NCBI GenBank assembly: GCA_014905635.1
Contig: JABVCE010000019.1
Location: 558,001-622,000 of the forward strand
Direction: 5' to 3'
DNA length: 64,000 nucleotides
Source of the DNA: Scenedesmus sp. PABB004
Lineage: Eukaryota
Shown here: piece after piece, positions 5,192 to 59,601 of the stretch
How the letters are laid out: each line of letters starts with the position of its first letter
Position numbering within the stretch: position 1 is the stretch's first letter
The notes under the pieces: generated by a model
Told to the model about the DNA's origin: nothing
Database searches by the model: none
What the model saw: only the letters and a program-made list of their open reading frames with translations
Position numbers and translations under genes: made by a program

Positions 5192-5906
5192 CTTCCATCT
5201 GCCCGTCCACCCACATCACTGACAGTTGCGGCAGACCATCAGGGGTGCTGTCGGGGCTTGTGAGGCCCGGCTCATGGGGGGGGGGGGGGGATGGGTGGGG
5301 CTGCCGACGGGCTGCCTTGACAGGGCTTTGCACACCACGCAATTTTATTGCGCGGCTCCCTCCCTTCCAGCTTGCTGCGCACTTGCCTGGGGGCTCGCGG
5401 CATGTCCGGCCCAGGGCCCCGGCCGGTTGAGGCCCGCGCGCTGATTTACGCACGCCGCAGCCGCACTCACGCGCGGGCTGTGATTGGAGCGGAATCTGAT
5501 CTTCTCTCCACATCAAGCACTTGACACATCCGGATAGCTTGTGTAACAATGAACTCGTTGCTCGAGGGTCTGTGGCGGCGGCGGCGGCGGCAGCGGCAGA
5601 GGCGCAACGAGTCGCGCCGCGGCCGTCAACTCAGGCCCTGCGGTGACCCCTCCCGGCTGTGGTGCGCTCCTACCTCCCTCCTCCGGCGCCGTTGCTCACT
5701 CCCGCACCTCTGAACGCTGCACAGGCCGCGCACACGGCAGCGGCGCGGCAGCAGCGGCGACAGCTCAATCTTGCAATCCCTGCACGCCACAGCGTCCGGC
5801 CTGGCACGCCCGGCGCTGCACCTCAAAGATCATCGCGGTTGGTGCTTGGTAGCGCAGCTTGCGCAGCTAGCGCCGCAGCTGGAGCGTCGTGCTCACCTTC
5901 AGCAAG

Positions 5907-8900
5907 ATGCCGAGGGCCGCGGTGGCGGGCCCGGGCGCGCTCCTGGTCGCCCTGGCGGCGCTCTCGCTGGCGGGTGCCGTGACCATCTCCCCCGACGGCC
6001 CACCAGCGCAGCGCGTGTACAACCAGAGCGGCGAGGTATCGGGCGCTGTCCCCGAGCTCCCGTTCAACTACACGCAGACGCTGCCCAACGGCGTGACGCT
6101 GACCACCGTCAAGACCGCGCCCGGCTGCTCGCCCGAGCAGGCGCGCTGGCCCCGGAGCAGCGCGGCGCCGGGGGCGGCCGGTGACGCTGCTGCTGCCGCT
6201 GCTGCCGCTCGCCGCTGGCTGATGCGCGCCCCTGCTCTTGTGCAGGTGAGCGTGACGTTCTACGGCATTGACAAGAACGGCTACGCCTCGGTGCTGGTGT
6301 CGTGGGCGACGTGCGACGCGGTGGTGAGCGGCTGGGCGTGGGCGCGTGTGCGGCCGGCGGCGGCGGCAGCTGCAGGCCGCACCTGCAGGCCGCACCTGCA
6401 GGCCGCGCAGGCGACTCCCCTGGCGCGCCGCGTCCCCGCACCCAGGTGCAAACCACGGCGACGTCTGCCAACTGCACGGGCCCAGCCAAGCCGGGCACCG
6501 TGACGGGGCCGCTGTCGACGCGCGGCCTCACGTCGCAGGTGCGCCTGCCCGCCTTCTGCGTTCTGCCGCTTGCGCCACTGCTGCAGAGGCAACCAGTAAG
6601 ATCATGGACCGCGCCGCTTACCGCGCCTGCCTGCCGGCGCCTCCCCGCCCTCGCCGCCAGGTCTACTGGGTGGCCGCCGCATCCAGCCACGGCAAGACGC
6701 GGCTCTCGCAGGGCAACTGCACCTCCTACGTCACACGCTATGCTCCGCAGTATGATGCGATGGTGTACGCCAGCCCGCTGCTGCACCACGTGCTGCTCGT
6801 CGGTGCGGCGCCTGCGCAGCGGGCGGCGCAGCGTGCGACGCATCGTCGCCCTTTGAGCGCGTGCTGCGCTTGGCCGCCGCGCCGCCTGCTGAGCCCCTGC
6901 TGCACCTCCATGCTCGCCCAGGCCTCAAGCCCGGCGTGCGCTACAACTACACCGTGGTGGACAGCGTGCTCGCGGCCAGCTCGAGCGGCAGCACGCCGCG
7001 CCCGCTCGCGCCGGGCGAGACCGGGCCACACCCCTTCTCTGGCCAGTTCATTGTGCGCAGCGCCGCTGCGGGGGCCGGGCTGGGGCGCGCCCATGTCCCG
7101 CCGCGCCAGGTCGCCCGGTCGCCCGCGTGCGCGCCAGCGCGGCACTCACTTGCTGCCGCCGCCGCCGTGCGCGCTCACTGTGCGGCCGCAGGCGCCCGGT
7201 GCTGCGCCCGAGCAGAGTCCCTTTCCCTTCCAGATTGGGGTCATTGGTGCGGGGTCGGGGGCTGGGGCTGCATGGGTTTGCAGCGCAAGCGGCTCGGCTC
7301 TGCGCCGCCGCTCGCGCTGCCCCACACTGCCGCTGCGCCACGCTGGCGCCGCAGGCGACCCCGGGCAGACCGCCAACACGACCACCGTGATGCAGCACCT
7401 GATGGCGCCGTGGGGCCTCACGGCACCGCGTCGCGCGTGGAACAAGGGTGGCATGGATCTGCTGATGATCCAGGGCGACCTCAGGTGAGGGGCATGGGCT
7501 CCACACACTACCGCGCTGTGCCGCTGGTCACGAGCACGCCTGCACACCAACCTGACCACCCGCCGCCGCCCACGTGCCGAACCGCAGCTACGCAGATCGC
7601 TCAGACCTGCCAGGAGTCACGCCGGCGGGGTGCAAGATGTGCAACGTCAGCAACACGCAAGAGTTTGACTATAGCCCCAGGTGCGGCTGCCACGATTCAC
7701 CTCAGCCTGCGCCGGCATGCGCGCTGTGCGCCGCTGCAGCCGGGGTCGTCGCGCCACGGACAAGAGGGTGCCCGCGCCGCGTCGCAGGTGGGACACGTGG
7801 GGCCGGCTGTTCCAGCCGCTGCTGTCGGCGGTGCCAACAATCGTGATTCCCGGCAACCACGAGGTCGCCTTTGAGCCCGACCCGCTGGTTGCGCCGATCG
7901 ACATCCCTCTGCGCCAGGTCTGAGGGTGCTGGGGGCACAGGGTGTTTGCTGTTGTACCTCAAATCACAGCAGTCTCAGCGCTCAATCCTGTCTGCACTCC
8001 GCCACGCAGGCGCACTACAATGCACGCTACCCACAGGCGGTGCGCGGGCCTCGCAACGCGCCCGACGCAACGACGCTCGGCCCCGCGACCTCCGCGACGC
8101 CCTGGGCCAACGCGTATTACTCGGTCTCCGTGCCGGGCGTCGCGACCTGGATTGCGCTGTCCAGCTACAGCCCTGCGGAGATTGCCAACAGCAGCACCAG
8201 CAATGGCTTCACGAAGAACAGCGCGCAGTTCAAGTGGCTCCAGCGCACGCTCGCGGTGCGGCACACGCAGGGGGCTTTGACCCAGGGCGCCGCGCTGCCG
8301 CCCGTGCTCGCGCCCGCGCCCGCCTCCCACGCCCGCTGAACGCCGCGGTTGACCGCGTCAACCGCCGCCGGGCGCGCCAGGCGGTCAACCGCACCGCAAC
8401 GCCGTGGGTGATTGTGAGCTTCCATGCGCCGTGGTACAACACCTATGTTAGCCACTTCAAAGAGAATGAGTGCATGCGCCAGGCGAGCACGCACGCTGCA
8501 GAGCCAGCCAGAAGCTGCTGCTAACAGGCAGCTTGCACTGGCACGGCCTGCTCAGCGCTCACCCCGTGTGCGCCGAGCCGCAGGTGTACGAGCCGCTGCT
8601 GCTGGAGGGGAACGTTGACATTGTGCTCCTGGGCCACGTGCACGCGTACGAGCGCACCAAGCCGCTCGCAGACTTTCAGGTGCGCGACAACTCGCGCGAC
8701 GCTGCCGTCCGGTCGCACTGGGCCGCTCAGCGCGCGGCGAGCAGCAGGCAAGGGTGAGCTGCCTCGTTGACGCCGTTGCCACCGCCGCTGCGCAGGTGGA
8801 CAGGGGGGGCTGCGCGCCGATGCACGTCACAATCGGTGACGCCGGCAACGTGGAGGGCGTCGCGAGTGCTTTCATCACAGGTGAGGAGGCTCGCAAGGGG

Positions 8901-9456
8901 CCTGCCGCTGCTCTTAGCCGCGGCCTGGCGCCGGCCGCCCAACCAAAATCCCCCCTGCGCCCGTCGCCCGCCTCCGCCCTCGCTGCTCACACCGACGACC
9001 GCCGTGATGCAGCCAACGTGACCGGCCCGTATCTCAATTGTTCGACGCCCGAGACGTACTCCTTCCCCCCCTTCCAGCCGCAGCAGTGCTTCACCTATCA
9101 GTCGGGCCCCGGCAGCGGCTGCGCCGCCGACGCGCGCTGCTTCTGCTACGCCAGCCAGGTGCGGAGTGCTCGCGTGGGCTTGGCTCGGGCTGGGGCCGGG
9201 CGGGCGGGCGGCCGCCTGCGCCTGCCGCCCACCGCCCCCCTCACACCACCCCGCATCTCCCCCAACCCCTCGCCCACCTCCCAATTCCAAGCCGGCGTGG
9301 AGCGCGTACCGCGAGCCGAGCTTTGGGCACGGCCGGCTGTACCTCAACAGCGCGACGAGCGCGGTCTGGCAGTGGTTCCGCAACAATGGCGGCGTCATGA
9401 CGCTGACAGATGAGGTGACCATCACGCGCGACCCGCGCTGCTCCGCTTCTGCCTAG
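5907..9456 (+). CDS. Secreted purple acid phosphatase, tandem copy 3 (more diverged 3' half)
   Basis: Same exon structure and five motifs; ATG 4282 bp after the copy 2 ATG; stop TAG 9454-9456. Confidence 0.93.
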
Positions 9457-9648
9457 CTCCCATCTGCCCGTGCACCCACATCACTGACTGTTACGGGCTG
9501 TGATTCAAGCGGGCTGTGATTGGAGCTGATGCCGACCTTCTCGCAACAGCGAGTGCTTGCTGTTATTGTGTCAAGAGCTACCTGGCCGTTCGCAACCGGC
9601 TAGTGTGTGTGTGTGAAAAGACAAAGACAAAGATAGTTACACCACAGG

Positions 9649-9794
<146 letters not shown>

Positions 9795-31659: not shown

Positions 31660-33737
31660 CTACTGCGGGCCGTCGGCGCTGCTCGCGCGGCCGTTGAGGG
31701 CGCGCAGCAGCTCAAAGGTGGGGCCCATGCCGCCCAGCGCGCCCGCCATTTGGCGCACCAGCTCCAGCACGTCGCTCGGCGCCTCGCCGCAGGCGGCGGG
31801 CGGCGCCAGCTGCGCGCCGCCCGCGAGCGACAGCGGCGACGGCCCGTGCGCGCCGGCCTGGTGGTGCGCCGCGCCGCCGTGCAGCGCCGCCGCGGCGGCG
31901 AGCTGCTGCTGCTGCTGCGCGAGCAGGAACCCCGTGAGCTGCTGCCCCGCGGCCGCAGGGCCGCACCCCGGCGCGCTCGTCGCGCCCAGCAGCAGCGGGC
32001 TGCCCGGCGGCGACGCGCCGGTCGCGGCGCTGAAGCACTCGCTCGCCTCGCGCCCGGCCAGGGCAAAGGCCGTGGCGTGGCTCATGGGGCTGCCGCACGC
32101 GGCGGCGGCGAGCAGCGGCGCGCCGCCGGCCTTGCTGGGGCTGCCCGGCGCGCCGCCGCCGCTGGCAGCGGCGCCCGCGCCCGCGAACGCCTGCTGCTGC
32201 TGGTGCAGCGCCAGCGCGAGCGCGAGGCTGTGGTTGTGCGGCAGCCGCGCGCCGGCGCCGAGCAGCACGTGCCGGCTGCCCGTCGCGAGCGGCTGCTGGT
32301 GGTGCGCGGCGGCGGCGGCGCCGCCCGCCGCCAGCAGCGCGCCCGCGTCGCCGCCCGCCGCCACGTAGTCGCCGTGCGGCGCCGCGCCGGCCGCATAGTC
32401 GCCGTGGCCCGCGCCGCTCGCGACGGCGAGGCGGCTGAGCGGCATGCAGTGCGGCGCGGCGGGGGCCTCGGCCTGGTGGTGGTGCAGCGCGCCGGGGCCG
32501 CTGTGCGCCTCCTCGTCGTAGCAGCCGTCGTCGGTGTCCTCCGTGGGCACCACCTCGCTCGTGTCCTGCGCGCGGGGCGCGGCCGGGCGGGGTTTGATAA
32601 TGCGGGGCTGAGCGCGGCGCCGCCGCCCGCCCGGGGGCCTGCCTGCCGCGCCGCGGGGCGGCGCCGCGAGCTGCGCACCTCGGTGGCGGGCTCGTCGCCG
32701 CGCATGCGCTTGGCGCTGTTGTTCGCGGTGTCGTGCCCGACGCGGCGCTTCTTGGGCTGCGGCGCGCGGCAGGCGGGGGGCGGCGTCAGCAGGGGCGCGC
32801 CACGCGCGGCCGGCTGGGTCCCGAGCCCGGCTCCGGCTGCCGGCGCCGCCCGCGCCGCCGCACCATGGCCTTGCCGAGCGTGCGCGTGCGCAGGAAGCGG
32901 ATGCCGCAGGCGTTGCACAGGATCGGCTTTCCCTTGGGGCCCTTGCGCCACTGCGGGCTGCTCGTCGCGCTGCAGTGGCAGCAGGGGCCCGCGAGGTCCT
33001 GCCGCGCCTTGCGCCGCCCGCCGGGCGTGGCCGCGCCGCCGCCGCTGCCCGCGGGCGCGGGGCTGCCGCCGCGCGCGAGGCTCGGGCTGCCGCAGGCCAC
33101 GGCGTTGTTGCCGCACAGGCCCAGCCGGCTCGGCGGGGCCAGGCAGGCGGCGGGGCAGTAGTCGGTCACCACGCCTGCGCGCGGCGGCGGGCGGGGCGGG
33201 CAGCCGGCGTCAGCCGGCTGGTTTCCCGCGCTGGCAGCTCAGCCCCGCGCGCCAAGCTGGTTAGCGGCTGCTCAACACTGCGGTAGCATCATGGCCGAGC
33301 GCTGCAGCGATCCCGCAGCTGCTGGGTGCCGCGCGCGAGCGCCGCGGCCTTGTAGTGCCGGCCGCATGCCACGGCCGAGCAACGCCCGCGCGCTCAGGGC
33401 CCGCTTGCCCTGCCGCCGCCTCCCAGGGCCGGGGATCGTCAGCTCCGAGCCGCCCCCGCCCCGCCGGACCCGCGTGCGCGCTCACTGGCGTCCCAGGGCG
33501 AGCGCCAGGGCAGCGTTTGCTTGCGTCGCCCGCTGCCCGGCCGGCGCTGGAAGAGGCTCCCCGTCTCGCTGATGTCGCTGCGAGTGCTCTCGCTGTCGCT
33601 GTCCGCGCCGCCGTAGCCGTGCGCGAGCAGGAACTGCGCCGTAACAGCACGATGGGGCGGGCGCGCCGCGTGAGCGCTCGCCGCACGCGCGCCGGCGCTG
33701 GCGCAGCGCTCAGCCACCGCACGCGACCCACCTCCAT
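31660..33737 (-). CDS. GATA zinc-finger transcription factor A
   Basis: [34 protein letters not shown] (CX2CX18CX2C); stop TAG 31660-31662; start tentative (ME|intron). Confidence 0.85.
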
Positions 33738-40912: not shown

Positions 40913-42445
40913 CTAGCGAGCACCGCCGCCCGCCGGGCTGGCGCCGTTGGCGCCGCGCAGCTGCTGCAGCATGCTCTGGTGCAGGGCGAGCGCCCGGTCC
41001 ATGCTGCCCAGCTTGTTGGCCAGCTGCTCCAGCACCGCCGGCAGCAGGGCCGCCGGCCCGGCCGCCGCGGCGACCGCAGGCGGCGCAGCGGGCGCAAAGC
41101 GCGTCGGCCGCGCGGGCTGCGCGGCCGCGCCCGGCGCGACAGACAGCGGCGAGGGGCCGTGGCGCCCGCCGCCGCCGCCGCGGCAGGCGCCGCGCTGGGC
41201 GCGCGGCGCGCAGTCGGGCGCCGGCGGCGCGTCGCCGCCGCCGCAGTCGGGCGCGTCCGCTGCGACCAGGTGGGGCTCCACCTCCTCCACGGCGTCCTCG
41301 CTCCACTCCATCATGTGCTGCGCAGGAGGGGGCGGAGAGGCACAGTGGGACGCCAGTCGGAGCTGCACGCGCTGGCAGCGCCGCGCAGCCTCCGCGGCAG
41401 GCACGGGCCCGCGCCGGCGCGGCCGGCTCGGCCGGCGCGGCGGCGGCGCAGCGCGCCCGGCGCGTCCCACCTCCGCCGACATCTCGGCCTCGCCCTCCTC
41501 CGACGCGCGCGCGCGCTTGGCAGCGCGCGCGCTGCCGCCGCAGCCGCCGCTGGCGCTCAGCACCGCGCTCGCCGCGCCGCCGCGGCGCTGGTTCTGCGGC
41601 GGGGGCGGCAGTGGCGGCGGGGAGGGAAGCAGCTCAGAGCTGCGCTGGCCGGCACGCGGGCCTGCGCCTGGCGCAGGGCTCTAGCTGGCCAGCTGAAGGT
41701 GCCATGGCACCTTCAAAAACGAGCCCGTGCGCAGGAAGCGGATGCCGCAGGCGTTGCAGAGCACCGGCGCGGCCTTGGGGCCGTGCCGCCACTGCAGAGC
41801 AGGCGCCGGCGGGGTGCCGGCGCGGGCGGGGTCAGCGCGGCGGCGGGCCGCCGCGCGGGGGCCTGCCGCCGGGCCTGCCAGCCGCCCCGCAGCAGCAGCG
41901 CCAGCAGCGGGGGCACCAGCACACCTGCGGTGACTCTGTCACGCCGCAGCCGTCGCAGGGCCCCGCCGTGACGGGGCAGCGCACCGCCTGCGCGGACGGG
42001 CGCCTCGCGGGCGCGGCGGGCAGCTGCTCCTGACGGTGCTGGTGGTGCTGCGCGCCCGCCCGCGCCGAGCGCCGCAGCGCCGCCGCGGCCCGGCTGCCGC
42101 TGAGCTCGGCGGCGGGCTGGTCGGCGGCAGGCACGTCGCTGTCGCTGTACATCGGGGCGCGGCGTGGGGCGCACGGCTTGCGCAGCCGCCTGCTGCTGGG
42201 CCAGGCGCTGGCGCGCCAGCTGCTGGTGCACGCCGGCAAGTCGGTCGTGCGGTCGCTCCAGGTGCTGGTGTTGTCAGAGGCGGCGGGGCCGTCGGACCAG
42301 GCCGCCACGATCGGGAGCCTGCGGCGGCGGGGGCCGGGTCGCGCGGTCCGAGCGCGCGGCGGCCGGCTGCTGCGCCGCGCGCGGGCCCTGCGCCAGGGCG
42401 AGGTCCGCACCAGCCGCCGGATGCTCCGTCAGGGTCGTGGGCCAT
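40913..42445 (-). CDS. GATA zinc-finger transcription factor B (divergent)
   Basis: [33 protein letters not shown] with an intron inside the finger; termini tentative. Confidence 0.78.
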
Positions 42446-44609: not shown

Positions 44610-46057
44610 GCGGCCGACCGCCAGCAGCATGTCGGCGAGGCTCGCCGCGTGCTCCGCCTCCTCGGCAGCGGCGTCAGCCTCGGCCGCCGCGGCCGCGGCC
44701 GCGCGCGCCGACTTGCGGCGCGCGCCCAGCACGGGCGCGCCGCCCTGCCCGGCGCAGCGCGCCGCGGAGGCCTCCTGCGCCTCCTGCTGCTCCTCCTCGC
44801 CGCCCGGCTGGCTCTCCTCCGCCTGCATCGCCTCGCTGCCGGCCGGGTCGGCCTCCTCGTCCTGCAGTGTCGCGCGGCGCGGCGAGGCGGCGGATGTCGG
44901 CTGCTTGCGGCGCCCGTGGCGTCGCCGCCGCCGGCGCAGCGGCGGGTGGGAACGGGCGCCGCGCGGGCGGCGGCCGGGGCGGCGCACCTCGCTCGTCGCC
45001 TCGTCCGCGCGCGCGCGCTTTGCGGGGGGCGCGCCAAACTCGTCCGACGCGGCGGCCGCGCCCGCGGGGCCGCGGCGCTTCTTGGGCTGCGGCGCGCGGG
45101 CGGCCGGCGCGGCGGGGTGGGCGGCGTGCCGGCCGCCATGGGGCCGCGGCGCCGGCCGGCGGCGCGCGCACGCCTGCTGCCTTCTGCAGCAGCTGCTGCC
45201 TGCTGCTGCTCACCGCGACCTTGGTCAGCGTGCGGTTGCGCAGGAAGCGGATGCCGCAGGCGTTGCAGAGCACCGGCTTGCCCTTGGGGCCCTTGCGCCA
45301 CTGCGGGCTGCTCGTCGCGCTGCAGTGGCAGCAGGGGCCGGCGAGGTCCTGCTTCGCCTTCTTGCCGCGGCCGGGCGCCGCCGCGGGCGCCGCCGCGGGC
45401 GCCGCCGCGGGCGCCGCGGGCGGCGCGGGCGTCGCTGCAGTCGCCGCGGGCGCGGCGGGCGCGGGCGGCTGGGCCGCGCGCGGCGCGGCGACCGCCGCCC
45501 GCGGGCTGGCCGCCGGGCTGGCGGTGCCGCGCGGGGAGGCCTTGGTGCTGGCGGAGTCGCCTGCGGAGCGGCGGGTGCGGGCGGCGGCCGCGCGCTCAGC
45601 GTCGCCGGCGGCGCCGCGCCCGGCCCGCGCGCCGGTCAGCCGCCGCAACCCCCAGCTGCGCCCAGCGAGATCGCTGCCCCCGGCCGCGCGCGGGTCGCCA
45701 CGAGCTTGCCGGCACCCGGACCGGGCGTCCGCGCCCCCCGGCGCCGGCCCACGACCGCGCGCGCGCCCGCTTTTGGGGCGATGCCCTGCTTCCGCCGCGC
45801 CGCCCTCCGCGCGGCGCGGGCGCGCCGCGGGGCCGGCGCGGCATCGGGGCGGCCGCGGCTGCTCCCGGGGCGTCCAATCCGGTGCATGATCGCGCCCCGC
45901 GCCGCCGCTCACCCGCGCCCTCCGCATACATCGCCGCGCGCTTGGGCGCGTTCTGCTTGCGCCGGCCGCCGCCGGCGGCGACAACGCTCGACCCGGGCGC
46001 CGTGGCCGCGCCCGTGGTCTCGCTGCGCACGCTGTCGGTGTCGCTGCACTCCTCCAT
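44181..46057 (-). CDS. GATA zinc-finger transcription factor C
   Basis: [15 protein letters not shown]..; [35 protein letters not shown]-terminus paralogous to GATA A; stop TGA 44181-44183. Confidence 0.87.
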
Positions 46058-47556
46058 CGCGGCCGCCGTCGCTGCCGGCGCGCGCGCGGGCCGGGGGCGA
46101 GTTCGGAAGGGCACGGGCGTGCCGGGGGACGCGGCGGCGCCGATCGGGGGTCGCTCCCCTCGCACGGCGGGCGGTGGCGGGCCGGGCTGGCTGCGCGCGC
46201 AATTCGGGGCTGGATCACGGCCGCGGTGGTCGCTTGCTAGAGTGAGGGACGGCGCGGGTCTGGGGGCCACGGCGGCGGGCGCGGGGGTTGCACCGGCGCG
46301 GCGGGCGGCCGCCGGTAGAATCGCAGCTAACGCCCCCGCGCCAGCGCGCCGCCCCGGCCGCGCCACGGCCCGCCGCGCGCGCCAGGGGCCAACCCTAAAC
46401 CTTCCCGCCCCGGGGCCGCGATCACGCGGCAATTGAGCGCGCCGCGGGCCTGCCAGCGTGGCAGCTGGCGGCGCAGCGCGCTGCCGCCGGCGCCGCCCGG
46501 CGCGCTGCCGCCGCCGCTGCCGCGCGCCAGCTGCCGGCAGCCCGTGGGCGGCTGCCACCAGGCCCCCGCTCGCCCGCCGGCCGCGCTCACACGGCCGGCG
46601 ACAGCACGCCGGCCAGGCGCACCGTCTGCGGGCCCGCGCCTTGCTGCAACGTCACGCGCGGCGCGGGCTGCCCCGGCGCCGGCGCGTCCTGTCCTGGCCA
46701 GAGCGGCACCACCGCTGACTGGGTGTTACACACCGCTCCGCAGCTCCAACAGCCGGGAGAAAGCCCCGGTCAACTCCCGCGCTCGCGTGTGCCCCACCAT
46801 CCTCGCGCGCGGCCCTGCCCACCCCCATTTGACATGGCTGCATGTACCATCGTGCACGGAAACTCAGCGGGCTCTGCCCCCAGCTCTTGTTCTTTCGTTC
46901 GCGTTCTCGTGCGCGCGCGCGCTGCCCGCGTGCGTTGGCGAGCCCACACACAGGTCCGCCCACACACACCCGCCCGCGAGCCCTGCCGCTCAAGATGCAG
47001 CAGCACTCCCCGCGTCCCCCGGTCTCGAGCGCCCCAGAACACGTGGTGCGGCGCGGCACAGGACCCCGAGAGGCGCGGCCAGCCGGCCTGCGGGCGCTCG
47101 TGGGGCCCAGCGCGCGCCGCACTGTGGAGTGGAGTTATGGCCCACGTGTTCGGGGTGCAAAAGCGCGCTCGCTTGCTTAGGTCGCGGCAGAGCGCGCAAA
47201 CAACAAAAAACCATGCCAGGGGCTGCGCAGCGGCGCGCGCGCCGGCGCGCTGCCTCTGTCGCTGCCCCATCCGCGGCGTCGTATGCGACGCCGCGGGCTA
47301 CGTACTACGTAGGCGCCCCCGGGGGCAGAGTGGCTCTGTGTGGCGGTTGGCCATGCACGCCGCGGCGCAAGAAGGAAGTATGACAAAAGGGAATAAGGGA
47401 ACAAACAAACAAGGGAAGGCATAAAGAAGCGCATAAGCGCATGAGTGCACTGGCACAGGGCAAAGAGCATGGCACGCAAGCATGCGCTGCCGCGTCCACG
47501 CGGCACCATCCATGCCTAGGCGACGTAAAGCCAGAGTCAATGAAAAAAGCACGCTC

Positions 47557-48707
47557 TCACCACAACAGGGACTTGGTCAGCACCGAGCCCTGCACGTCCA
47601 GGGTGAACCCCGGCAGCGTCACGCCGCGCACGGTGAGCGTGCAGCCGCCCGCGCCGGCGGTGCCCGCGCCGCCCGCGCCGCGCGTGCGGAACACGGCGCT
47701 GCCGGCCGCGCCGGTCGCGAGCCCGACGTCGGTGCCGCCGGGGAGCGCCGCCGCGCCCGTGGCGCCGGCCGGCGCCCACGTCGCGGCGACGAGCGCGCGC
47801 GGCAGCGGCGCGCCGGCGGCCGACACGACCGTGACGACGGCCTTGCAGGACGGCACGCGCGCGCGCGCGGGCCCCGTCATCACGCGCACCAGCTCGATGC
47901 CCGCCACGCGCATGCCCGGCGCCGGCACCGACACCGGCACTGCCGGCGGCGCCGCGACCGGCGACGCCGCCGGCGGCGCCGGCGGCAGCGGCGGCTCCGC
48001 GGGCGCGAGGCTCGCGTCGGCCGTGAAGTTAAGGCTCAGCCGGAAGCCGCCGACGCTGCCGTACGCGCTGTAGCCGGTGGTCGCCGGGTCGCCCAGGCCC
48101 GCGCCGGACACCGTCAGGTAGTAGATGCCCGGCGCCGGCAGCGTGAGCGCTGTCGGCGGCACGCCGAGCGCGTCGGGCGGGTTGAGCTCCGCGACCACGG
48201 CGCCGCCCGCGTCGCGCAGCGTGAGCGCGGCGTCGAGGTTGCCCCGGTTCACGCCCGCCCACGGCGCCGCGACGTCGAGCGCCACGCTCGCCGGCCCCGC
48301 GCCCGCGGCGACCTTGAACCACTGCGCGCCGCCCGCGACCGCGCCCGCCGCGGCGCCGCTCGCGCCGTCGCCCGACAGCGCGAGCGGCACCGCCGACGCC
48401 GCGTCGGCGCCGCCAGACGGCGGCGCGCGGGGCAGGAAGGTACCGATAACCGCGAGGTCGTCCTGCGGGGGCGGGGCGGGGCGGGGCGGGGCGGGGGGCG
48501 TTATGTCATGTGTTATGTGTTGGGCGCCAAACACAGAACCAGCCCAGGGCGCCAGGCCCACCGAGCCGCGGCGGCGGCTGCGCGCTGCGCGCGGCGGCGC
48601 GCGGCGCACCTGCGCGTTGTTCGCGTGTGCAAACTCGCCGTGGTCAAACTGCGTGACCGACTTGTAGTAGCCGACGCCCTGACGCCGCAAGGCGGGCAGA
48701 CAGGGTT

Positions 48708-48772
<65 letters not shown>

Positions 48773-50714
48773 CGCGGCGGCCGGGGCGCAGGGGCGCCGC
48801 GGCGCGCGGGGCGCAGGGGCGGCGCGGCGCGCGGGGGCGGCGTGCGGGGGTTGCGAGGGCGCGCGGCGCGCACCATGATGGGCGCCCAGTCGCCCTGGCC
48901 GGTGTAGTAGCCGCTCGCGGGCGTGTCGCCGTCGGCCTTGACGCCGTCGTGCAGCAGGCCGAGCGTGTGCCCCACCTCGTGGCTCACCGCCTCCCACACA
49001 AACTGCGGGCGCGGACGCGGCGGCAGCAGCGGCGGGGTCAGCCGCGGTCGCGGCGGTTGCGGCGGGCGGGCCGCGCAGCGCCCTCCCGCTGCGCCCCCGG
49101 CCGCCGCGGCACGCCGCCCGCGCTGGCCCCGGCCGCCGCCGCCGCGTGGTGGGTGCGCGCGCGCGCGCACCTTGGGGAAGTTGGGGCCCAGGTTTTTGGG
49201 GAAGATGAAGCAGGGCGTGTTGTCGCGCCCAAACGTGCCCACGAGCGCGACGCCGCCGGCGGAGCCGTACCAGTCAGAGGCGGAGCCGCCGATGAGCACG
49301 CGCACGCCGCGCCCGACCAGGGCTGCGCCGGCGGCGGCGGCGGCGGCGGCGACAGGCGGCGGCGCGAGCGGAGCGGGGTGAGCCGGCCCGGGTGGGTGAG
49401 CGGGCATGGCGGCGGCGCGGCGGACGCGGCGGCGGCGCGCGGTCGGGGGCGCACCCGCGTTGCCGGGGTCGCGCGTCGTCACGTCGACGTCAAAGGCGGA
49501 ATAGTCCTCGGACACAGCGCGCCTGCGCGTTCCGGGGGGCGGCGGCGGCGGCGTCAGGAGGGCCGCGGCGGGCGGGGAGGAGGGGCGCTGCCCGCGGCGC
49601 TCGCGCCCGTGCGGGCTGGCGCCGGCGGCCCGGGCGCGCTGCCCGGGGTCGGGCGCGCGCGCTGCGCCCCCGGTCGGCGGCACCGTGCACTGCGGTCAGC
49701 GCACCAGATGGCGGCGATGTCGGCGAGCTCGTCCGCGTTGAAGGTCGTCTGGTCGCCGTCCTTGTCGTACGGCGGCGTGGAGATCACATCCAGGCCCTTG
49801 GCCTGCGCACCGGCGGCCGGCGCGGCGCGTGAGCGCGCGGCGCGCTACCGGCGGTGCGCTGTGCGGCGCGCAGGGCCGGCGGGCGCGGAGGGCGCCGCGG
49901 CGCCGCGCGACGCCGCGCCAGACGCCTACGCGCGGCGCGGACCTTGTTCCAGGCGCTGTCGGTGAGGTTGTGGCCGTCAAAGTCGAGCAGGATGGTGGTC
50001 GGCGCGCCGGGGCGGCTGCTGAGGGAAAACGTCTGCTCGAGGCTCAGCGGCGCGTCGGGCGCGGCGTCGGCCGCGGCCGCGGCCGCGATGTCGGCCTCGC
50101 TGGCGTTGGCCATGAGGCCCTGGCACTCGAACAGCAGCTCGTCCGTGGCCGTGTCGACGCCCTGCGGTGCGAGCGGGCGGGCGGGCGGCGGCGTGAGCAG
50201 CGCCCGGCGGCGGCGGCGGCTGTGCCAGCGCTCGCCCCTGCAGCCGACGCGCGGCGTCCAGAGGCCGAGACTGAGCTGCCTGGGCTCGATCACGGGCTGC
50301 TGCGCGGTCCGTGGCCCTGGCGGCCGCGCCGGCGCTGGCGACGACCGGGAGCGATGCTCGCGCGGCCGGCCGCCCCTCGGCGCGCACGCTGCCGCCGGGT
50401 CCGCTGCGCCGGGCCCCACGGGTCCTGCGCCGCGCCCTGGAGCTCCCAGGGCGGCCGCTCACCAGCTCCTTGTCCGTATCCAGCACGTGCGCGAGTGCAG
50501 CGATGTCGCCCCTGAACGCGGCGTTGTCGCGGATCCTGTGCAGCCGCGCCTCGCCCAGCGCCGCCAGGGCACCGCCATCGGCGCTAAAGTCGAACCGGAA
50601 CGCGTGCCCCGGCCTGCGCGGCGCCACGCCGGTGCCGCGCTGCGCGCCGAGCGGGCGGCCGGCCGCGCAGCCCGCCAGCAGCGCCGCCGCGAGCAGGAAC
50701 GCGACGGCACGCAT
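47557..50714 (-). CDS. Secreted metzincin zinc metalloprotease with a PPC-like C-terminal beta domain
   Basis: Signal peptide MRAVAFLLAAALLAG; HEVGHTLGLLHDG (HExxHxxGxxH); Met-turn WAPIM|GVGY; ILLDFDGH; VSEDYSAFDVDVTT; GYSAYGSVGGF. Confidence 0.88.
48713..48770. repeat. (GA)n microsatellite in a metalloprotease intron
   Basis: Direct reading. Confidence 0.95.
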
Positions 50715-51761
50715 GTCTGGGAGGTGGTGCTAAGTGCGCGTGCAGCTAAAGGGCTCGCTGGTGAGTCTGCTGCTGGCACACGGGCCCCCGCGTGTGGCGG
50801 TCCGCGCGCCGTCTATGGAGGCGCCTAGGTCACGTCGCTCTAGACACCGGATGCAATGGCGCCCGGTCCGGGCGGGCGCGACCCCGGGCTGCGCGGCACC
50901 GGCCGGCAAAGTCGGCAGGGCATCGTCCTGCCGGACACACCCCGCCCGCGCGCCCGCCGGGGCACGCCGGGCCGATCCGCTGCACCTGGTGAGGTTTAAG
51001 GCGCACTTCCGTGCCAACGCGCCCGTCCGAACGCGGCGCCCGTGCCCAGGTGGACCACAGTGCCCCCGCGCGGTGAGCGGCGCCGCGAGGGGCGAGCCGC
51101 CGCCTGGCGGTCCAGCGCGGGCTGCGGCGCTGGTGCGGGGCGGTCCTCGCGCCCACCACTGACCCCCGGCCTGCGCCGTGCAGCCCGCGGGTCAACGTGG
51201 CGCGCGCAGCAGCGGTGTGTTTGCAGCGGAGCGGCTGCCGGGAGCGGCGGCGGCGGCCGTCGCGGCGGCTTTGGTGGGACTTCGGTTTGTTAAGCTCAGC
51301 TCGGGCCGCCGGTCTGCCGCGCGTTGGCGGCGCCGGCCGGTCACGCAACGTGCTGCGGTGCAGCATCAAATCGACGATGCGGCAAACCCACCCCCCCCCC
51401 CACCGCTGGCGGGGCCCAGCCGGGGCCAGCCGTGCGCGCGCCGGCGGCGCCATGCGGCGCCGAACGCGGCGCGCGCGCTGCGGCCAGGCGGCGAGGGGCG
51501 GGGGCAAAAAAAGGACGACGGGGTCAACGACAGCGACACGCCGAGCCGCCACAGGCGGCAGTCAGGGAAATGGTGAGATGGCGTCTACACGCCCAGCAGG
51601 CGGCGTGCGCAGGTGTGCGGGTCGGGGCGCGGGCCGCGGCGCGGCGCGCCCCGCCGACACAAGGCTTGCCGGCGGGGGCGCGCCGGGCCGGTCGCCCGCG
51701 AGCCGCCACAGACGATGCGCTCTCAAAGGGATATGCGGCACACTCATTCGGGGGCGGCCGC

Positions 51762-53338
51762 TCACGCGGTGGCCTCGGCGCCCTGCACCTGCGCGACGAG
51801 CGCGTCGACCGCGTCGCTGCTGTCGTCGATGAGCTGGCGCGTGCCCTCCACGGCGAGGAAGATGGCGGCGTTGACGGGGATCGCGCGCCAGAGCGCCGCG
51901 GTGACGCCGCGCCACATGCCGGCGGCGCCCTCGACCTTGAGCGACTGGCGGATGCAGTCCATGGTGCCCTTGAACTGGGGCTTGGACAGCGAGTCGGCCT
52001 GGATCTTGGACTTGATGGTGTCGATGGGGAACATGGAGCCCCACAGACCAAAGCCCGCCATCACGCCCGCCAGCATGACCTGCAGAGAGCGGTGCGCGGG
52101 CGCGGGGAGGCGTCAGGGGGCCGGCGCGTGCGCCGGCAGCAGGGCGAGGCGGCGCTGCCCCGTACGCGTGCGCGCGCGCGCGCGCGCGCGCTCAGCAGCT
52201 GCGCGCACCTGGCTGTAATGGAGGTCGGCCTTGGTCTTGCCCGGGCCCGCCAGGTAGTGGACGGTGGCCTCATAGCCGAAGAAGAACTGGGAGGCAGGGG
52301 TGCGGCAGCGGGCAGGGTCAGCAGGAGGCGCAGGGGGGCGAGCGGCGGGCGGCGCGGCGCGGCGCGGCGGCGCGTGCCGTGGCGCTGGCAGCGACAGCGC
52401 GCGGCGCGCACCCAGGCGTAGCCCTGCATGTCGCGGGCGAGCGTGCTGAGGTAGCCTGAGTACATGCCACGCAGGCCGTGGTTGCGGAAGATCTTCTTGG
52501 CGCAGTCCCAGTTGCCCTTGTAGTTCTCCTCGGGGTTGAGCCCGCCCGCGGCGGCGCCCTTCATCTGCGCGAGGATGTTGTTCTTGCGCACCATCTGCAT
52601 CTTGGTGCGGATGAGCTCGGTGGGGCTGGACACCACGGAGCCCGCCGCGCCGGCGGCGGCGCCCGAGGCGAGGATCTTCCAGGGCGTGAAGGTGCCCGGC
52701 GCGTCGCCGGCCTCCAGGTAGTCGCGGGTCTTGTGGAAGGTGGGGAAGTGGATGCCCAGCAGCAGCATGTTGCCCAGGAGCGGCGCGACGGTGCCCTTGT
52801 AGAGGGACAGCGGGCCCTCGGCCTTGAACTGCGGGGGGCAGCGGCCGGCGCGGGCTCAGCGCGCGCACGCGGGGGCGAGGGCGGCGCCGCCTGCGCGCGC
52901 GCGCGCGCGCGCGAGCGAGCGAGCTCCGGCGCCCCGGCAGCGCGCGCGGCGCGCGGGCTCACCATCTTGCGCACGCAGTCCATGCCGCCGTTGTAGACCA
53001 TCTCCGGGGGCATGCCGGCGGCACCGATGGTGCCCTTGCCCAGCACCTGGAGGCGCGTCTTGATGGTGTCAAAGGGCTGGCCCACCATGATGCGCGCCAC
53101 GCCGCCGGACACGCCCGGCAGGATGTCCAGGATCTTCTTGTGCACCGGAGGGGTGTGCTCCACCTCCATCAGGGTCTGCGCCGGCCGGCGGGGCGCGTGG
53201 TGAGCGCCCGGCGCGGCGCGCAGTCGGCGCGGCGCGGCGCGCGCGGCGGCGGCGGCGCGCAGGCGGGCCGCGCCGGCGGTCGCGCGCGCTCGCGCGGTGG
53301 CCACGCACCTCGTTCTGCATCTGGCCGAGGGCAGGCAT
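51762..53338 (-). CDS. CCP1/2: Low-CO2-inducible mitochondrial-carrier-family protein (CCP1/CCP2, LIP-36-like), left copy, 5 exons
   Basis: LMEVEHTPPVHKKILDILPGVSGGVAR; three carrier signatures PFDTIK, PTELIR, PIDTIK; RDMQGYAW|FFFGYEATV; RAIPVNAAIFLAVEGTRQ, all closely resembling Chlamydomonas CCP1/2. Confidence 0.9.
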
Positions 53339-54663
53339 GGTGGCTGCTTGGTGTGGGAGCGGCGGGGGATGGGAGGCCTGCGCGCAGCAAGGGGTTGCAG
53401 AGCCGTCAGAGGGACGAGCTGCTGGGGTGCTCCTGGGGCTCAGAACGCTGGTGCGAGCGTGACTGGAGCTGCCGCGAGTGTTGGCGCTGCCCGGGCGCGC
53501 GCCGGCGGGCAAGGCCAACCACGATGGGCCGGCGCCCGGCCGCACGCGCAGGGGCCGCGCCGGGCTCTGCGCCGGCGCCAGCTGCATGAAATCGGCGCTG
53601 CGTCGCGCTGGCCGGCGCCGCTAGCTGCAACACTCACCGGCTGGAGCGCGGCCGATGTAGGAGAGCGAACGCAGGTGGGGCCTGGCTCAGGGAGCGCAGA
53701 CGATGAACTGCGGCAGCAGGTATGGAGCGGCGAGGGCGGGGATGCGAACTGGGGGGCGAGCGAGCGCTCTAATAAGCCGGAGGCGACGCCGCAGGCATGT
53801 GTTAGCCTCCGTTGTAGACCTCGCCAGCCCGCCGGTGCGCCGCGCCCCCGGTCTGGCGCTGCGCGACGGGGCTAGCCTCACCACGCGCTACGTCTCGGGG
53901 GCGTCGGCCGACCGATAGCGGGCGCGGGCGCGCGGGGTGCCCGTGACCTACTCGCCGTCGCAACCGCCGCGCGCGGTCAGGGCTGGGCGTGCGCTTCAAT
54001 TGCCCCAAGGAGCGATCGGACACTGTCTGCGGGCTGCGGCGGGCTGCAGCCCACGGGCGAGCGAGCGGGTCAGCAGCCTGGCGCCGCGCTGGATCGGCAG
54101 GCACGCCCGGGCTCCAGGCGCGCCCGGAGCGTGCGCAGCGGTCAGATGAAGCACAAAAAGCGCACCCCAAGGCGCGCTGCTGCGCTCCGCTGCTGCCGGC
54201 AGCGCCGCGCGCGGTGCGCGGCCACGCGCGCGGCGGCGGCTGCCGCGCGCGGCGGAGGGTGAGCGCTCTGGTGCGTGCCGTTGCGCGCTCCCTGCCACTC
54301 CCTGGCACCAGGAGCGAGCTGCTGCAGCGTGCGCCAGGCCTTGCGCTGGCCGCGAGCAGCTGGGGCGCGCCGCGCGCGGCGAGGGCCCGCATGGTGTGCG
54401 CGCGCGCGCCCGGCGCGCCCGGCGGCCGCGCACGCGGGCGGCAGCTTCGCTGGAGTGGGCTGCTGGTGGGTGACCGGCCGGTGGGTATCGAGCCCCTGGC
54501 CCTGTGCGCCTTTGGGCAGTGGTCCAGCGCGGCGCCGCGCTGCGCCGCGCGCCGTCCCAAGGCGGCCACCCACGCGCAGCGCAGCACGGCCACCTCCGCG
54601 GCCTCGAGGCCGAGCTGGGCTTCGTGCTGCAGGCCACCGGAGAGCTGTGCGCGTCGCCGCTGC

Positions 54664-54852
54664 CTCCCGGGCGCCCAATCCGGTGCATGATCGCGCCCCG
54701 CGCCGCCGCTCACCCACGCCCTCCGCATACATCGCCGCGCGCTTGGGCGCGTTCTGCTTGCGCCGGCCGCCGCCGGCGGCGACAACGCTCGACCCGGGCG
54801 CCGTGGCCGCGCCCGTGGTCTCGCTGCGCACGCTGTCGGTGTCGCTGCACTC
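54664..54852 (-). pseudogene. Captured fragment of GATA C exon 1 (without ATG) plus the start of intron 1
   Basis: Near-identical to 45862-46051; reads [45 protein letters not shown]. Confidence 0.92.
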
Positions 54853-56221
54853 GGCGGCGCGGGGCGCGATCATGCACCGGATTGGGCGCCCGGGAGGCAG
54901 CGGCGACGCGCACAGCTCTCCGGTGGCCTGCAGCACGAAGCCCAGCTCGGCCTCGAGGCCGCGGAGGTGGCCGTGCTGCGCTGCGCGTGGGTGGCCGCCT
55001 TGGGACGGCGCGCGGCGCAGCGCGGCGCCGCGCTGGACCACTGCCCAAAGGCGCACAGGGCCAGGGGCTCGATACCCACCGGCCGGTCACCCACCAGCAG
55101 CCCACTCCAGCGAAGCTGCCGCCCGCGTGCGCGGCCGCCGGGCGCACCGGGCGCGCGCGCGCACACCATGCGGGCCCTCGCCGCGCGCGGCGCGCCCCAG
55201 CTGCTCGCGGCCAGCGCAAGGCCTGGCGCACGCTGCAGCAGCTCGCTCCTGGTGCCAGGGAGTGGCAGGGAGCGCGCAACGGCACGCACCAGAGCGCTCA
55301 CCCTCCGCCGCGCGCGGCAGCCGCCGCCGCGCGCGTGGCCGCGCACCGCGCGCGGCGCTGCCGGCAGCAGCGGAGCGCAGCAGCGCGCCTTGGGGTGCGC
55401 TTTTTGTGCTTCATCTGACCGCTGCGCACGCTCCGGGCGCGCCTGGAGCCCGGGCGTGCCTGCCGATCCAGCGCGGCGCCAGGCTGCTGACCCGCTCGCT
55501 CGCCCGTGGGCTGCAGCCCGCCGCAGCCCGCAGACAGTGTCCGATCGCTCCTTGGGGCAATTGAAGCGCACGCCCAGCCCTGACCGCGCGCGGCGGTTGC
55601 GACGGCGAGTAGGTCACGGGCACCCCGCGCGCCCGCGCCCGCTATCGGTCGGCCGACGCCCCCGAGACGTAGCGCGTGGTGAGGCTAGCCCCGTCGCGCA
55701 GCGCCAGACCGGGGGCGCGGCGCACCGGCGGGCTGGCGAGGTCTACAACGGAGGCTAACACATGCCTGCGGCGTCGCCTCCGGCTTATTAGAGCGCTCGC
55801 TCGCCCCCCAGTTCGCATCCCCGCCCTCGCTGCTCCATACCTGCTGCCGCAGTTCATCGTCTGCGCTCCCTGAGCCAGGCCCCACCTGCGTTCGCTCTCC
55901 TACATCGGCCGCGCTCCAGCCGGTGAGTGTTGCAGCTAGCGGCGCCGGCCAGCGCGACGCAGCGCCGATTTCATGCAGCTGGCGCCGGCGCAGAGCCCGG
56001 CGCGGCCCCTGCGCGTGCGGCCGGGCGCCGGCCCATCGTGGTTGGCCTTGCCCGCCGGCGCGCGCCCGGGCAGCGCCAACACTCGCGGCAGCTCCAGTCA
56101 CGCTCGCACCAGCGTTCTGAGCCCCAGGAGCACCCCAGCAGCTCGTCCCTCTGACGGCTCTGCAACCCCTTGCTGCGCGCAGGCCTCCCATCCCCCGCCG
56201 CTCCCACACCAAGCAGCCACC

Positions 56222-57795
56222 ATGCCTGCCCTCGGCCAGATGCAGAACGAGGTGCGTGGCCACCGCGCGAGCGCGCGCGACCGCCGGCGCGGCCCGCCTG
56301 CGCGCCGCCGCCGCCGCGCGCGCCGCGCCGCGCCGACTGCGCGCCGCGCCGGGCGCTCACCACGCGCCCCGCCGGCCGGCGCAGACCCTGATGGAGGTGG
56401 AGCACACCCCTCCGGTGCACAAGAAGATCCTGGACATCCTGCCGGGCGTGTCCGGCGGCGTGGCGCGCATCATGGTGGGCCAGCCCTTTGACACCATCAA
56501 GACGCGCCTCCAGGTGCTGGGCAAGGGCACCATCGGTGCCGCCGGCATGCCCCCGGAGATGGTCTACAACGGCGGCATGGACTGCGTGCGCAAGATGGTG
56601 AGCCCGCGCGCCGCGCGCGCTGCCGGGGCGCCGGAGCTCGCTCGCTCGCGCGCGCGCGCGCGCGCGCAGGCGGCGCCGCCCTCGCCCCCGCGTGCGCGCG
56701 CTGAGCCCGCGCCGGCCGCTGCCCCCCGCAGTTCAAGGCCGAGGGCCCGCTGTCCCTCTACAAGGGCACCGTCGCGCCGCTCCTGGGCAACATGCTGCTG
56801 CTGGGCATCCACTTCCCCACCTTCCACAAGACCCGCGACTACCTGGAGGCCGGCGACGCGCCGGGCACCTTCACGCCCTGGAAGATCCTCGCCTCGGGCG
56901 CCGCCGCCGGCGCGGCGGGCTCCGTGGTGTCCAGCCCCACCGAGCTCATCCGCACCAAGATGCAGATGGTGCGCAAGAACAACATCCTCGCGCAGATGAA
57001 GGGCGCCGCCGCGGGCGGGCTCAACCCCGAGGAGAACTACAAGGGCAACTGGGACTGCGCCAAGAAGATCTTCCGCAACCACGGCCTGCGTGGCATGTAC
57101 TCAGGCTACCTCAGCACGCTCGCCCGCGACATGCAGGGCTACGCCTGGGTGCGCGCCGCGCGCTGTCGCTGCCAGCGCCACGGCACGCGCCGCCGCGCCG
57201 CGCCGCGCCGCCCGCCGCTCGCCCCCTGCGCCTCCTGCTGACCCTGCCCGCTGCCGCACCCCTGCCTCCCAGTTCTTCTTCGGCTATGAGGCCACCGTCC
57301 ACTACCTGGCGGGCCCGGGCAAGACCAAGGCCGACCTCCATTACAGCCAGGTGCGCGCAGCTGCTGAGCGCGCGCGCGCGCGCGCGCACGCGTACGGGGC
57401 AGCGCCGCCTCGCCCTGCTGCCGGCGCACGCGCCGGCCCCCTGACGCCTCCCCGCGCCCGCGCACCGCTCTCTGCAGGTCATGCTGGCGGGCGTGATGGC
57501 GGGCTTTGGTCTGTGGGGCTCCATGTTCCCCATCGACACCATCAAGTCCAAGATCCAGGCCGACTCGCTGTCCAAGCCCCAGTTCAAGGGCACCATGGAC
57601 TGCATCCGCCAGTCGCTCAAGGTCGAGGGCGCCGCCGGCATGTGGCGCGGCGTCACCGCGGCGCTCTGGCGCGCGATCCCCGTCAACGCCGCCATCTTCC
57701 TCGCCGTGGAGGGCACGCGCCAGCTCATCGACGACAGCAGCGACGCGGTCGACGCGCTCGTCGCGCAGGTGCAGGGCGCCGAGGCCACCGCGTGA
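56222..57795 (+). CDS. CCP1/2: CCP1/CCP2-like carrier, right copy (coding sequence apparently identical to the left copy)
   Basis: Mirror image of 51762-53338; ATG 56222, TGA 57793-57795. Confidence 0.9.
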
Positions 57796-58284
57796 GCGGC
57801 CGCCCCCGAATGAGTGTGCCGCATGTCCCTTTGAGAGCGCATCGTGTGCGGCGGGCGCGCGGACGGCCGGCCGCGGCGCGCGCCGCCCGTGCTGCTCGAT
57901 TTTGAGGGCGGGCGCCCGCAGCGCGCGTGCGTCCGGCTCTGGCGGCGGCAGGTGTGCGCGGGGCTGTCAGGCCCCCGCTGATGAGAGCGCATGTGGCGTC
58001 TGGGCGCGCCGGCGCGCGCCGCCACCCGTGTGTGCGGCACTCATAACTCCCCCGGCAGCCCGCCGCAGCTGCGTCGGCGTGTACAGCAGAGGACGGGGGC
58101 TGCGGAACTTTGCGTTTGGTCGGTCGGCGGGCCGCCGCAGCGGCGGCGGCGCCCCGAGGGTGGGGACTGAACTCTGTCGAGGTATGTAGCGAGAGGGTCG
58201 GAGAGTGAGAGCTTGACAACCTGTTCCGGGTCCCAGCGGCACCCTGTGCGTAACGCCGCGTCGTGACGCCCCCCAACGCCCCGC

Positions 58285-58652
58285 TCAGCCCGCCGGCGCG
58301 TCCGCCGCAGCTGCGACGCCGCCCCCGCTGCCCTGCGCCTCAGTGCCGCCGCCCTGCGCCTCAGTGCCGCCGCTCCGCTCCTCGGCGCCGTCCCGCGCCT
58401 CTGCGCCGCCCTGCGCCTCGGCGCCGCCGTCGTCGCCAGGCAGGCTGGCTGCATCCGCGGCGGCGAGCGCGGCCGCCTCCCCGCCGCTGGCTGCTGTCGG
58501 GTCGCCTGCGGGCAGGCAGCCCGCCGCGGGCTCGCGCGAGCACGGCTCCCACTCAGCGGCGGCGTCCGCGATCGGCGACTGGGAGTCCTGCTGCTGCGCC
58601 GGCGCAGACGCTGCGTCTGCCGCCGCCCCGAGCTCGGGCTCGCCGTCCGGCA

Positions 58653-58684
<32 letters not shown>

Positions 58685-59601
58685 GCCGCGCCGTCCAGCG
58701 GCTGCTGCGCCGCCGCGCCGTCCAGCGGCTGCTGCGCGGCCGCGGCGTCCGGCAGCTGCTGCGCGGCCGCGCCGTCCGGCGGCTGCTGCGCGGCCGCGGC
58801 GTCCGGCAGCTGCTGCGCGGCCGCGCCGTCCGGCGGCTGCTGCTGCGCGTCCGCGCCGTCCGGCACGCCGTCGCCCATCGCTGCGAGCGCCGCCGCCGCC
58901 GCCTGCTCCGCCGCAGCCCTGGCCTCGTCGTCGTCGGTGCCGCCGCCGCGCTGCGCCCGGCCCGCGCGCCGCGGGCCCCTGCCGCCGCGCGGCGCGGGGC
59001 CGCCGTCGCCGCGCGGCGGCAGCACAAACACCTCGTCCCGCCCGCTGAAGCGCACGCGCTTGGCGCCGCCCGCGCGCGCCGGCGAGCGCGCGCGCTTCGC
59101 GGGCGCGCCCGCCGCGACCGGCACCCAGCCGCCGGGCCCGCCCGCGCCGCGGCCGGGCGGCGGGGCGCGCGCCAGCAGGCGCCAGTCGGTCGGCGCGCCG
59201 CCGCCCGGCGGCGGCGACGGGGGCGCCGGCGAAGGCGTGCGGTCGGGCGAGCCGCACTCCCAGTCGCCGCCCGGCTCCCAGCCGCTCGGCAGCCGCCCGC
59301 CCCACGCGCCCCGGCCGAGGCCCGGCGGCGCCGCCAGGCCGCGCAGGCGCTTGCCGCCGCCGCCGCGGGGCGCGGCGGGCGCCGCCAGCTGCAGCGGCGG
59401 CAGCAGCGGCAGCACCGCCACGAGCGCCGGCGGCGCCGGCGCCGGCGCCTCGCGCTCCGCTTGGCCGTCCGTCGCCAGGGCGCCGGCGTCGGCCTCGCCG
59501 CCCGCGGTGGGGCTCGCGCGGCCGCCGCCAGCGCGCGCAGCGGCGCGCTCGGCCGCCGCGCCGCAGTCGTCGCCGCCGCGCCACGCCTGCTCGGCGTCCA
59601 T
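58285..59601 (-). CDS. Intronless low-complexity 438 aa protein with an RVxF motif and QQP(P/L)DGAAA repeats
   Basis: ATG 59601 in good context; open frame to TGA 58285-58287; KRVRFSGRDEVFVLP; in-frame 27 nt repeats. Confidence 0.55.

Follow-up and report, generated by a model that had tools for sequence, protein, structure and literature searches.

How a piece of the first exon of a GATA factor gene, here called GATA C, came to lie at the centre of a long palindrome that carries two CCP1/2-like carrier genes in its arms, and whether this piece has any role there, is the question raised by the locus described in the following. The window, i.e. the whole stretch of 64,000 nucleotides of Scenedesmus sp. 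PABB004 DNA that was analysed, is extremely GC-rich (0.66-0.83 per 2 kb) and belongs to a genome described as 39.8 Mb in 77 contigs, with 78.5% GC and 1.31% repeats (PMC12571836). The palindrome is interior to the window, with ~51 kb to its left and 6 kb to its right, and both flanks are unique and different from each other. In a Pfam search, the flanks yielded only a sub-threshold Reprolysin_5 (left) and Ribosomal_L28e at ~63 kb (right) and, therefore, no further CCM-type genes.

Other repeated structures of the window are a tandem array at 1-9600 with a period of ~4.27-4.31 kb (two complete units and a partial third one, 77-100% identity; GC ~0.70 versus ~0.78 elsewhere), to the right of which a long (GT)n run occupies 9649-9790; an inverted repeat, the third of the window, at 27878-28074/29917-30113 (197-nt arms at 98%, 1842 nt between them), around which the ORFs gave no Pfam match; and, just to the right of the palindrome, a 27-nt unit repeated seven times in tandem (58644-58886). 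The copies of the latter fall inside a stretch (58590-58920) which is coding-like on the plus strand by a codon-position GC scan and is without a Pfam match.

The arms were placed by the repeat finder at 52334-54708 and 54852-57226, with 143 nt between them, and were extended by global alignment to ~3.0 kb, with outer limits at ~51705 and 57853 (table 1), as found for adjacent inverted copies of one segment. The mirror arms of the original prediction are thus confirmed as inverted, but they are not perfect: their first 2976 nt differ by two substitutions (54414/55146 and 53729/55831), one 1-nt indel and one GC indel, and the two indels sit in a C run and in a (GC)n run, respectively. The (GC)n run lies within a CCP intron (52171-52190/57368-57392), and the change of one GC unit between the arms is one of only four differences in these 2976 nt. 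Further out, arm identity fades over ~40 nt, leaving a ragged outer boundary, and no alignable homology was found past the arm ends. At the inner end, the mirroring of the intron-derived stretch 54664-54708 at 54852-54896 was confirmed, while the spacer, which had been taken for the captured exon 1, does hold 138 nt of it but also 5 nt of the adjoining intron.

Table 1. Features of the palindrome and of the GATA C gene (positions in the window).
Feature	Position	Strand	Content and basis
Left arm of the inverted duplication	51705..54708	-	whole CCP1/2-like carrier gene and 1.37 kb upstream; arm alignment
Left CCP-like gene, ATG to stop with introns	51762..53338	-	mirror of right copy; Mito_carr domains
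Spacer (palindrome loop), single-copy	54709..54851		intron with its GTGAG donor (5 nt) and exon 1 (138 nt)
Right arm	54852..57853	+	second whole CCP1/2-like gene; arm alignment and polarity argument
Innermost right arm	54852..54896	+	mirror of 54664-54708 (intron-derived part and ragged junction)
Right CCP-like gene, ATG to stop	56222..57795	+	Mito_carr domains; 100% match to P0001
Right CCP-like exons 2-5	~56385-56597, 56731-57148, 57272-57337, 57474-57795	+	limits from cDNA-like metagenome contig L001
GATA C-derived block	54655..54852	-	54676-54852 clean (176/177), 54655-54675 ragged (16/21)
Copy of GATA C exon 1 without ATG GAG	54714..54852	-	codons 3-48 and 1 nt; base-by-base alignment, tblastn
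Donor segment in GATA C	45854..46051	-	repeat finder and base-by-base alignment
GATA C exon 1 (putative)	45913..46057	-	ATG at 46057, 48 codons and 1 nt, donor GT 45912-45911
GATA zinc-finger exon of GATA C	45218..45304	-	PF00320, E 1.3e-11

The gene carried by the arms has PF00153 (Mito_carr) matches on three exon ORFs, i.e. three mitochondrial-carrier repeats, and a carrier exon is 100% identical to a deposited protein labelled Scenedesmus sp. PABB004 (P0001). Two further proteins, P0002 and P0003, are 92-95% identical. Among named proteins, its nearest relatives are one of Scenedesmus sp. NREL 46B-D3, named 'low-CO2-inducible chloroplast envelope protein' (86% identity), and Chlamydomonas CHLRE_04g223300, which is CCP1 (Cre04.g223300), with 53% identity. 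The designation of the arm genes as CCM genes, made in the original prediction, is a fair one in view of the homology to Chlamydomonas CCP1, but the function of CCP1/2 is unsettled in papers, and these proteins are presented in reviews as low-CO2-induced carriers. The two genes diverge from the centre, with 1.37 kb of upstream sequence between it and either ATG. The arms end only 58 nt beyond the stop codon, so that the 3' regions of the two copies differ; the copies are distinguishable only by these 3' ends, the two substitutions and the two small indels. TGTAA is a polyadenylation motif; it was not found within 2 kb downstream of either copy, which says nothing about their 3' ends.

A scan of metagenomes for CCP proteins led from 112 pattern matches to three loci, two of them cDNA-like and one genomic with 1 kb of upstream sequence, and none of the three showed upstream similarity to the window. 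When 22 CCP-like proteins were placed in a tree, pairs of paralogues clustered within species (with support of 87/97 for 002769/002770 of Tetradesmus obliquus and 91/93 for the E. debaryana pair), and, therefore, CCP genes would seem to have been either repeatedly duplicated or homogenized by concerted evolution; the PABB004 palindrome may be the youngest case of such duplication. The T. obliquus pair has neighbouring locus tags, and in Edaphochlamys two CCP-like genes are found on one contig (P0006/P0013, P0030/P0036, P0028).

The central claim of the original prediction, namely that the centre of the palindrome copies GATA C exon 1 from ~8.8 kb away with few differences, was borne out. A direct repeat of 198 nt (45854-46051/54655-54852) at 97% identity was returned by the repeat finder, within which a base-by-base comparison of 54676-54852 with 45875-46051 gave identity at 176 of 177 positions, in direct orientation and at a copy-to-donor offset of 8801 nt. 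The sole mismatch (54716 A versus 45915 G) changes codon 48 of the copied exon from GCG to GTG, and by tblastn the peptide of the copied exon agrees with the GATA C exon 1 peptide at 45/45 residues. The leftmost part, 54655-54675, is ragged, the 16/21 identical positions having a chance probability of ~5e-5 at this base composition. At the right end, exactly the first 6 nt of the GATA C coding sequence are missing from the copy, in agreement with the predicted absence of ATG GAG. What was copied is, in all, codons 3-48 of GATA C (plus 1 nt), the splice donor and 38-59 nt of intron, the intron portion running from 54655 or 54676 to 54713.

The GATA-derived block is one unbroken copy in the same orientation as its donor, and its collinearity with GATA C holds only in continuity with the left arm; on the right-arm side, what comes after the intron piece is the exon in reverse complement. 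Where the left arm departs from GATA C in this stretch, the mirrored 45 nt do so in the same way. Copies of the fragment in the 64-kb window are limited to the donor, the central copy and the mirrored piece, so that the dispersed high-copy repeat which the original prediction had considered as an objection to itself is not seen within this range. No homology was found past either end of the 198-nt block; a local score of 24 to the left of it (shuffles up to 18.5) was rejected as real homology, being due to off-register low complexity.

As to the donor, GATA C exon 1 opens with ATG on the minus strand and reads through 48 codons into GTGAGC. A search with the zinc-finger exon gave 44 matches, with Scenedesmaceae GATA factors, some of them complete transcript-derived ORFs, among them; the N-terminal motif of GATA C is visible in several of the 12 that were inspected out of these 44, and the exon-1 peptide aligns to the N-terminus in all three relatives compared, matching residues 1-40 of P0050 (E 2e-7), 13-48 of P0057 (E 1e-6) and 12-49 of P0048 (E 6e-7). 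The GC content by codon position is 0.67/0.67/0.96 in GATA C exon 1, and that of the carrier exon (0.60/0.50/0.99) resembles it, unlike the carrier introns. Because the N-termini of relatives match and the base periodicity is of the coding type, exon 1 is, as judged from sequence, real coding DNA of this GATA lineage, and the comparison supports GATA C as the donor of the central block and not its recipient. The 48-residue exon-1 peptide had no match among 179 candidates, taken from deposited proteins of 85-2000 residues (weak evidence), and no 100% match to GATA C was present in the zinc-finger-exon protein search; GATA C, therefore, appears to be unannotated and absent from the public protein set.

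The surroundings of GATA C are themselves rearranged. The window contains three GATA zinc-finger exons on the minus strand (32868-32954, 41709-41795 and 45218-45304), which are 79-83% alike, and the GATA B and GATA C genes lie between the arms of a second inverted repeat (39922-40499/46130-46715; ~580 nt, ~90% identity with gaps, cores at 93-97%). In the left arm lies the final part of a coding-like ORF on the plus strand, with its stop at 40053, and the right arm reaches to 73 nt upstream of the GATA C ATG, less than 80 nt from where the donor segment stops (46051). Two rearrangements of different ages, therefore, have a breakpoint at the start of GATA C.

The locus is probably the outcome of a recent head-to-head inverted duplication of the whole CCP1/2-like gene, carried out by one 3' end through several template switches, and the GATA piece would be a filler of the junction with no role of its own. 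The 3' end would have been broken or stalled before switching template several times. A top-strand 3' end near 54675, ~1.33 kb upstream of the left CCP gene, may have paired with the 16/21-similar site that lies 8.8 kb away in GATA C intron 1, and copying would then have proceeded to the right for 177 nt, past the splice donor and across exon 1, up to 6 nt before the ATG. After release, the strand may have folded back on itself with a 1-nt overlap, C 54852 on G 54708, leaving a 143-nt loop, and, by copying ~3.0 kb of its own sequence, it would have generated both the second gene and the 45 nt in mirror image before being rejoined to the right flank near 57853. According to this scheme, the left gene would be the parental copy and the right gene the derived fold-back copy, because the block is collinear with GATA C only via the left arm and one extending 3' end explains the order of the pieces.

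Several features of the sequence fit this course of events. The block must have been present at fold-back, since the mirrored 45 nt carry the left arm's differences from GATA C, and the template must have been DNA, not spliced RNA, since the block includes intron. The original prediction of a template-switch origin, with capture before or during fold-back, is in keeping with this anatomy, in which the block stands in continuity with the left arm. The junctions look like template switches: that between spacer and right arm is sharp, with one shared base (C at 54852), and the left edge of the block and the outer arm end are ragged. The 1-base overlap at 54851/54852 is, as a limit on the model, no more than chance would give, and the ragged edges could be those of conversion tracts rather than of template-switch homeology. 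A 16/21 match is estimated to occur about once per 20 kb at this base composition, so that a guide site nearby is unsurprising. The divergence between the arms (2/2976) and that between block and donor (1/177) do not differ significantly (Fisher p = 0.16), and the ages of the duplication and of the capture are, for this reason, compatible.

The same final sequence would be expected if a fragment of GATA C, as filler at an older break repair, had been inserted ~1.3 kb upstream of a single CCP gene, and an unrelated fold-back had later taken place there. The presence of the block before the fold-back, to which the shared differences of the mirrored 45 nt testify, is required by either course of events. 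However, two independent breaks within ~190 nt would be needed, and there is no sign of differing ages in the divergence values just given, which makes such a succession unlikely, if still to be reckoned with. The near-identical arms could also derive from gene conversion of an older pair: in this case, an old head-to-head CCP pair would have had its arms homogenized, as happens in other long palindromes, and the centre would have been kept matched to GATA C by occasional ectopic conversion. The ragged arm edges would suit such a history, and the grouping of paralogues within species fits concerted evolution as well as repeated duplication, but two conversion systems would have to operate simultaneously; the spacer, single-copy in the palindrome and 8.8 kb from its donor, is still 176/177 identical, and no weaker homology extends past the arm ends. 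Little probability is, therefore, left to an old pair. Retroposition was rejected, as the block lacks poly(A) and includes intron sequence, and so was transposon capture, no terminal repeats or target duplication being present; no flanking target-site duplication was found at the block.

A further explanation does away with the second arm as a biological entity, in that a chimeric fold-back long read or a misjoin would have created it in the assembly. Near-perfect long palindromes are a familiar artefact of long-read libraries, and the indels between the arms, being located in the C run and in the (GC)n run, look like consensus errors. Evidence on the joins comes from a 151-letter contig of a freshwater metagenome run, X1 (share 0.19; the one run, and no RNA run, listed as sharing sequence with the window), which matches 54579-54716 with no differences and bridges CCP-upstream DNA to the GATA-derived block, with 85 and 53 letters around 54663/54664; its depth is 3.7, and it may not be independent of the assembly. 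The read support for the junctions on which the original prediction was made to depend is, thus, given at the left join by this one contig, but not at the fold-back junction 54851/54852, which lies in the stretch 54744-54912 left bare by the X1 matches. One more match (record 8) reaches 8 letters past 54708, too few to count as a bridge from arm to spacer, and the remaining X1 pieces shown are low-complexity matches of 34-36 letters at 52350-52384. Against an artefact, a fold-back read would not include a 143-nt spacer from elsewhere and then regain a unique flank, and the palindrome is placed well within the window between distinct unique flanks. Because of these different flanks and of the bridged left join, the structure is probably real, and its creation by the assembly is very unlikely.

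With the template-switch duplication as the preferred reading, the second part of the question is whether the centre has acquired a function. It could be the source of a hairpin or small RNA with a GATA C loop, or else an element of joint control by which the CCP pair would be linked to GATA C. The single strand of 54640-54920 is predicted to fold into a long stem with the spacer as the loop (-153.5 kcal/mol, z = -16.5), a strong structure that follows from the inverted repeat itself, and the exon piece with its donor site points toward the left CCP gene; no promoter is apparent upstream of the retained donor site. On the other side, both arm genes are transcribed outward, from starts at 53338 (minus strand) and 56222 (plus strand), so that their transcripts do not cross the centre, and the read-through hairpin RNA that had been envisaged is doubtful. 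In a relative, the cDNA-like contig L001 has at least 167 nt upstream of the ATG and, with the centre at 1.37 kb, the latter is well upstream of the likely transcription starts. The idea that 'GATA regulatory DNA' had been placed between two CCM genes fares no better: the fragment begins within the coding sequence, at 6 nt from its start, and, therefore, brings along neither the GATA C promoter nor its 5' UTR, nor does it have the start codon; it contains no GATA core, and no WGATAR site is present in 53300-56300. Scans of 45000-58500 against Rfam and for tRNAs gave no match.

A regulatory or hairpin-RNA role of the centre thus finds no support, and either form of a functional centre is highly improbable. 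An even bolder proposal would have the palindrome selected and maintained, with low-level transcription of the centre giving a hairpin with a GATA C exon 1 loop, small RNAs or chromatin marks coupling the two CCP copies with one another and with GATA C, and the recurrence of species-specific CCP pairs among green algae reflecting selection for inverted pairs; it must be regarded as the most improbable of all. An asymmetric centre stabilizes a long palindrome, and the only likely effect of the 143-nt asymmetric centre is, plausibly, a passive one of this kind, by which the long palindrome is easier to keep.

The locus offers a base-resolved natural example of a whole-gene head-to-head duplication, in which the sequence itself gives the order of the template switches. 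It also suggests that, in a very GC-rich and repeat-poor genome, imperfect matches of 20 nt occur often enough for template switching to be guided by them, given the expected frequency of a 16/21 match. For annotation, the exon-like centre is not to be taken as a gene. No new biological question is opened by the case, which is a new example, in an alga, of a known rearrangement type.

The carrier genes themselves are like CCP1 and CCP2 of Chlamydomonas reinhardtii in having three Mito_carr repeats, in their 53% identity to CCP1 and in their occurrence as a pair; low-CO2 induction of the PABB004 arm genes is putative. In Chlamydomonas, CCP2-LCID and LCIE-CCP1 would, going by locus numbers, follow each other in mirror order, whereas the PABB004 genes sit close together in a 3-kb palindrome of near-identical arms, and these arms contain no LCID/E-like partner.

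As to the rearrangement, FoSTeS/MMBIR is a replication-based template switching that produces templated insertions and complex rearrangements. The PABB004 locus resembles it in having several junctions in a small region, a nearby template in cis (8801 nt away, in direct orientation), and an insert orientation that fits one extending 3' end. Micro- or imperfect homology at the junctions may be a further point of resemblance, with 16/21 at the left edge, a ragged outer edge and 1 nt at the centre, as compared within the derived sequence. It differs from FoSTeS/MMBIR cases in that the event is deduced from finished sequence and was not seen de novo. The insert of 177-198 nt is longer than the templated inserts described in yeast, which are very short (~5-34 bp; PMC11724301).

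The closest parallel is given by human fold-back inverted duplications, for which a single-copy spacer is reported at 21/21 sequenced junctions; repeat homology was absent from 18 of them, which showed either 2-8 bp of microhomology (13) or an inserted sequence (five) (PMC3907307). Fold-back inversions are also described in yeast and cancer (PMC10622511). The PABB004 locus shares with the human duplications, as described in that report, the inverted copies, a short single-copy spacer continuous with one arm (the 143-nt spacer extends the GATA block begun inside the non-inverted left arm) and little or no homology at the junction, insertions being present at some human junctions as well (PMC3907307). 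Unlike the human cases reported there, its arms are of 3 kb and its spacer of 143 nt versus 766-70,466 bp, its junction overlap is only 1 nt (C at 54852) rather than 2-8 bp, the duplication is interstitial, with unique flanks kept on both sides and no terminal deletion or dicentric sign, and the DNA of the loop is itself foreign to the locus (PMC3907307). In a literature search on natural inverted duplications with microhomology in Chlamydomonas, no natural algal case was found among the papers listed. The PABB004 palindrome is best read as an inverted duplication of the fold-back/template-switch type with a templated filler, a known kind of scar, here in a green alga.
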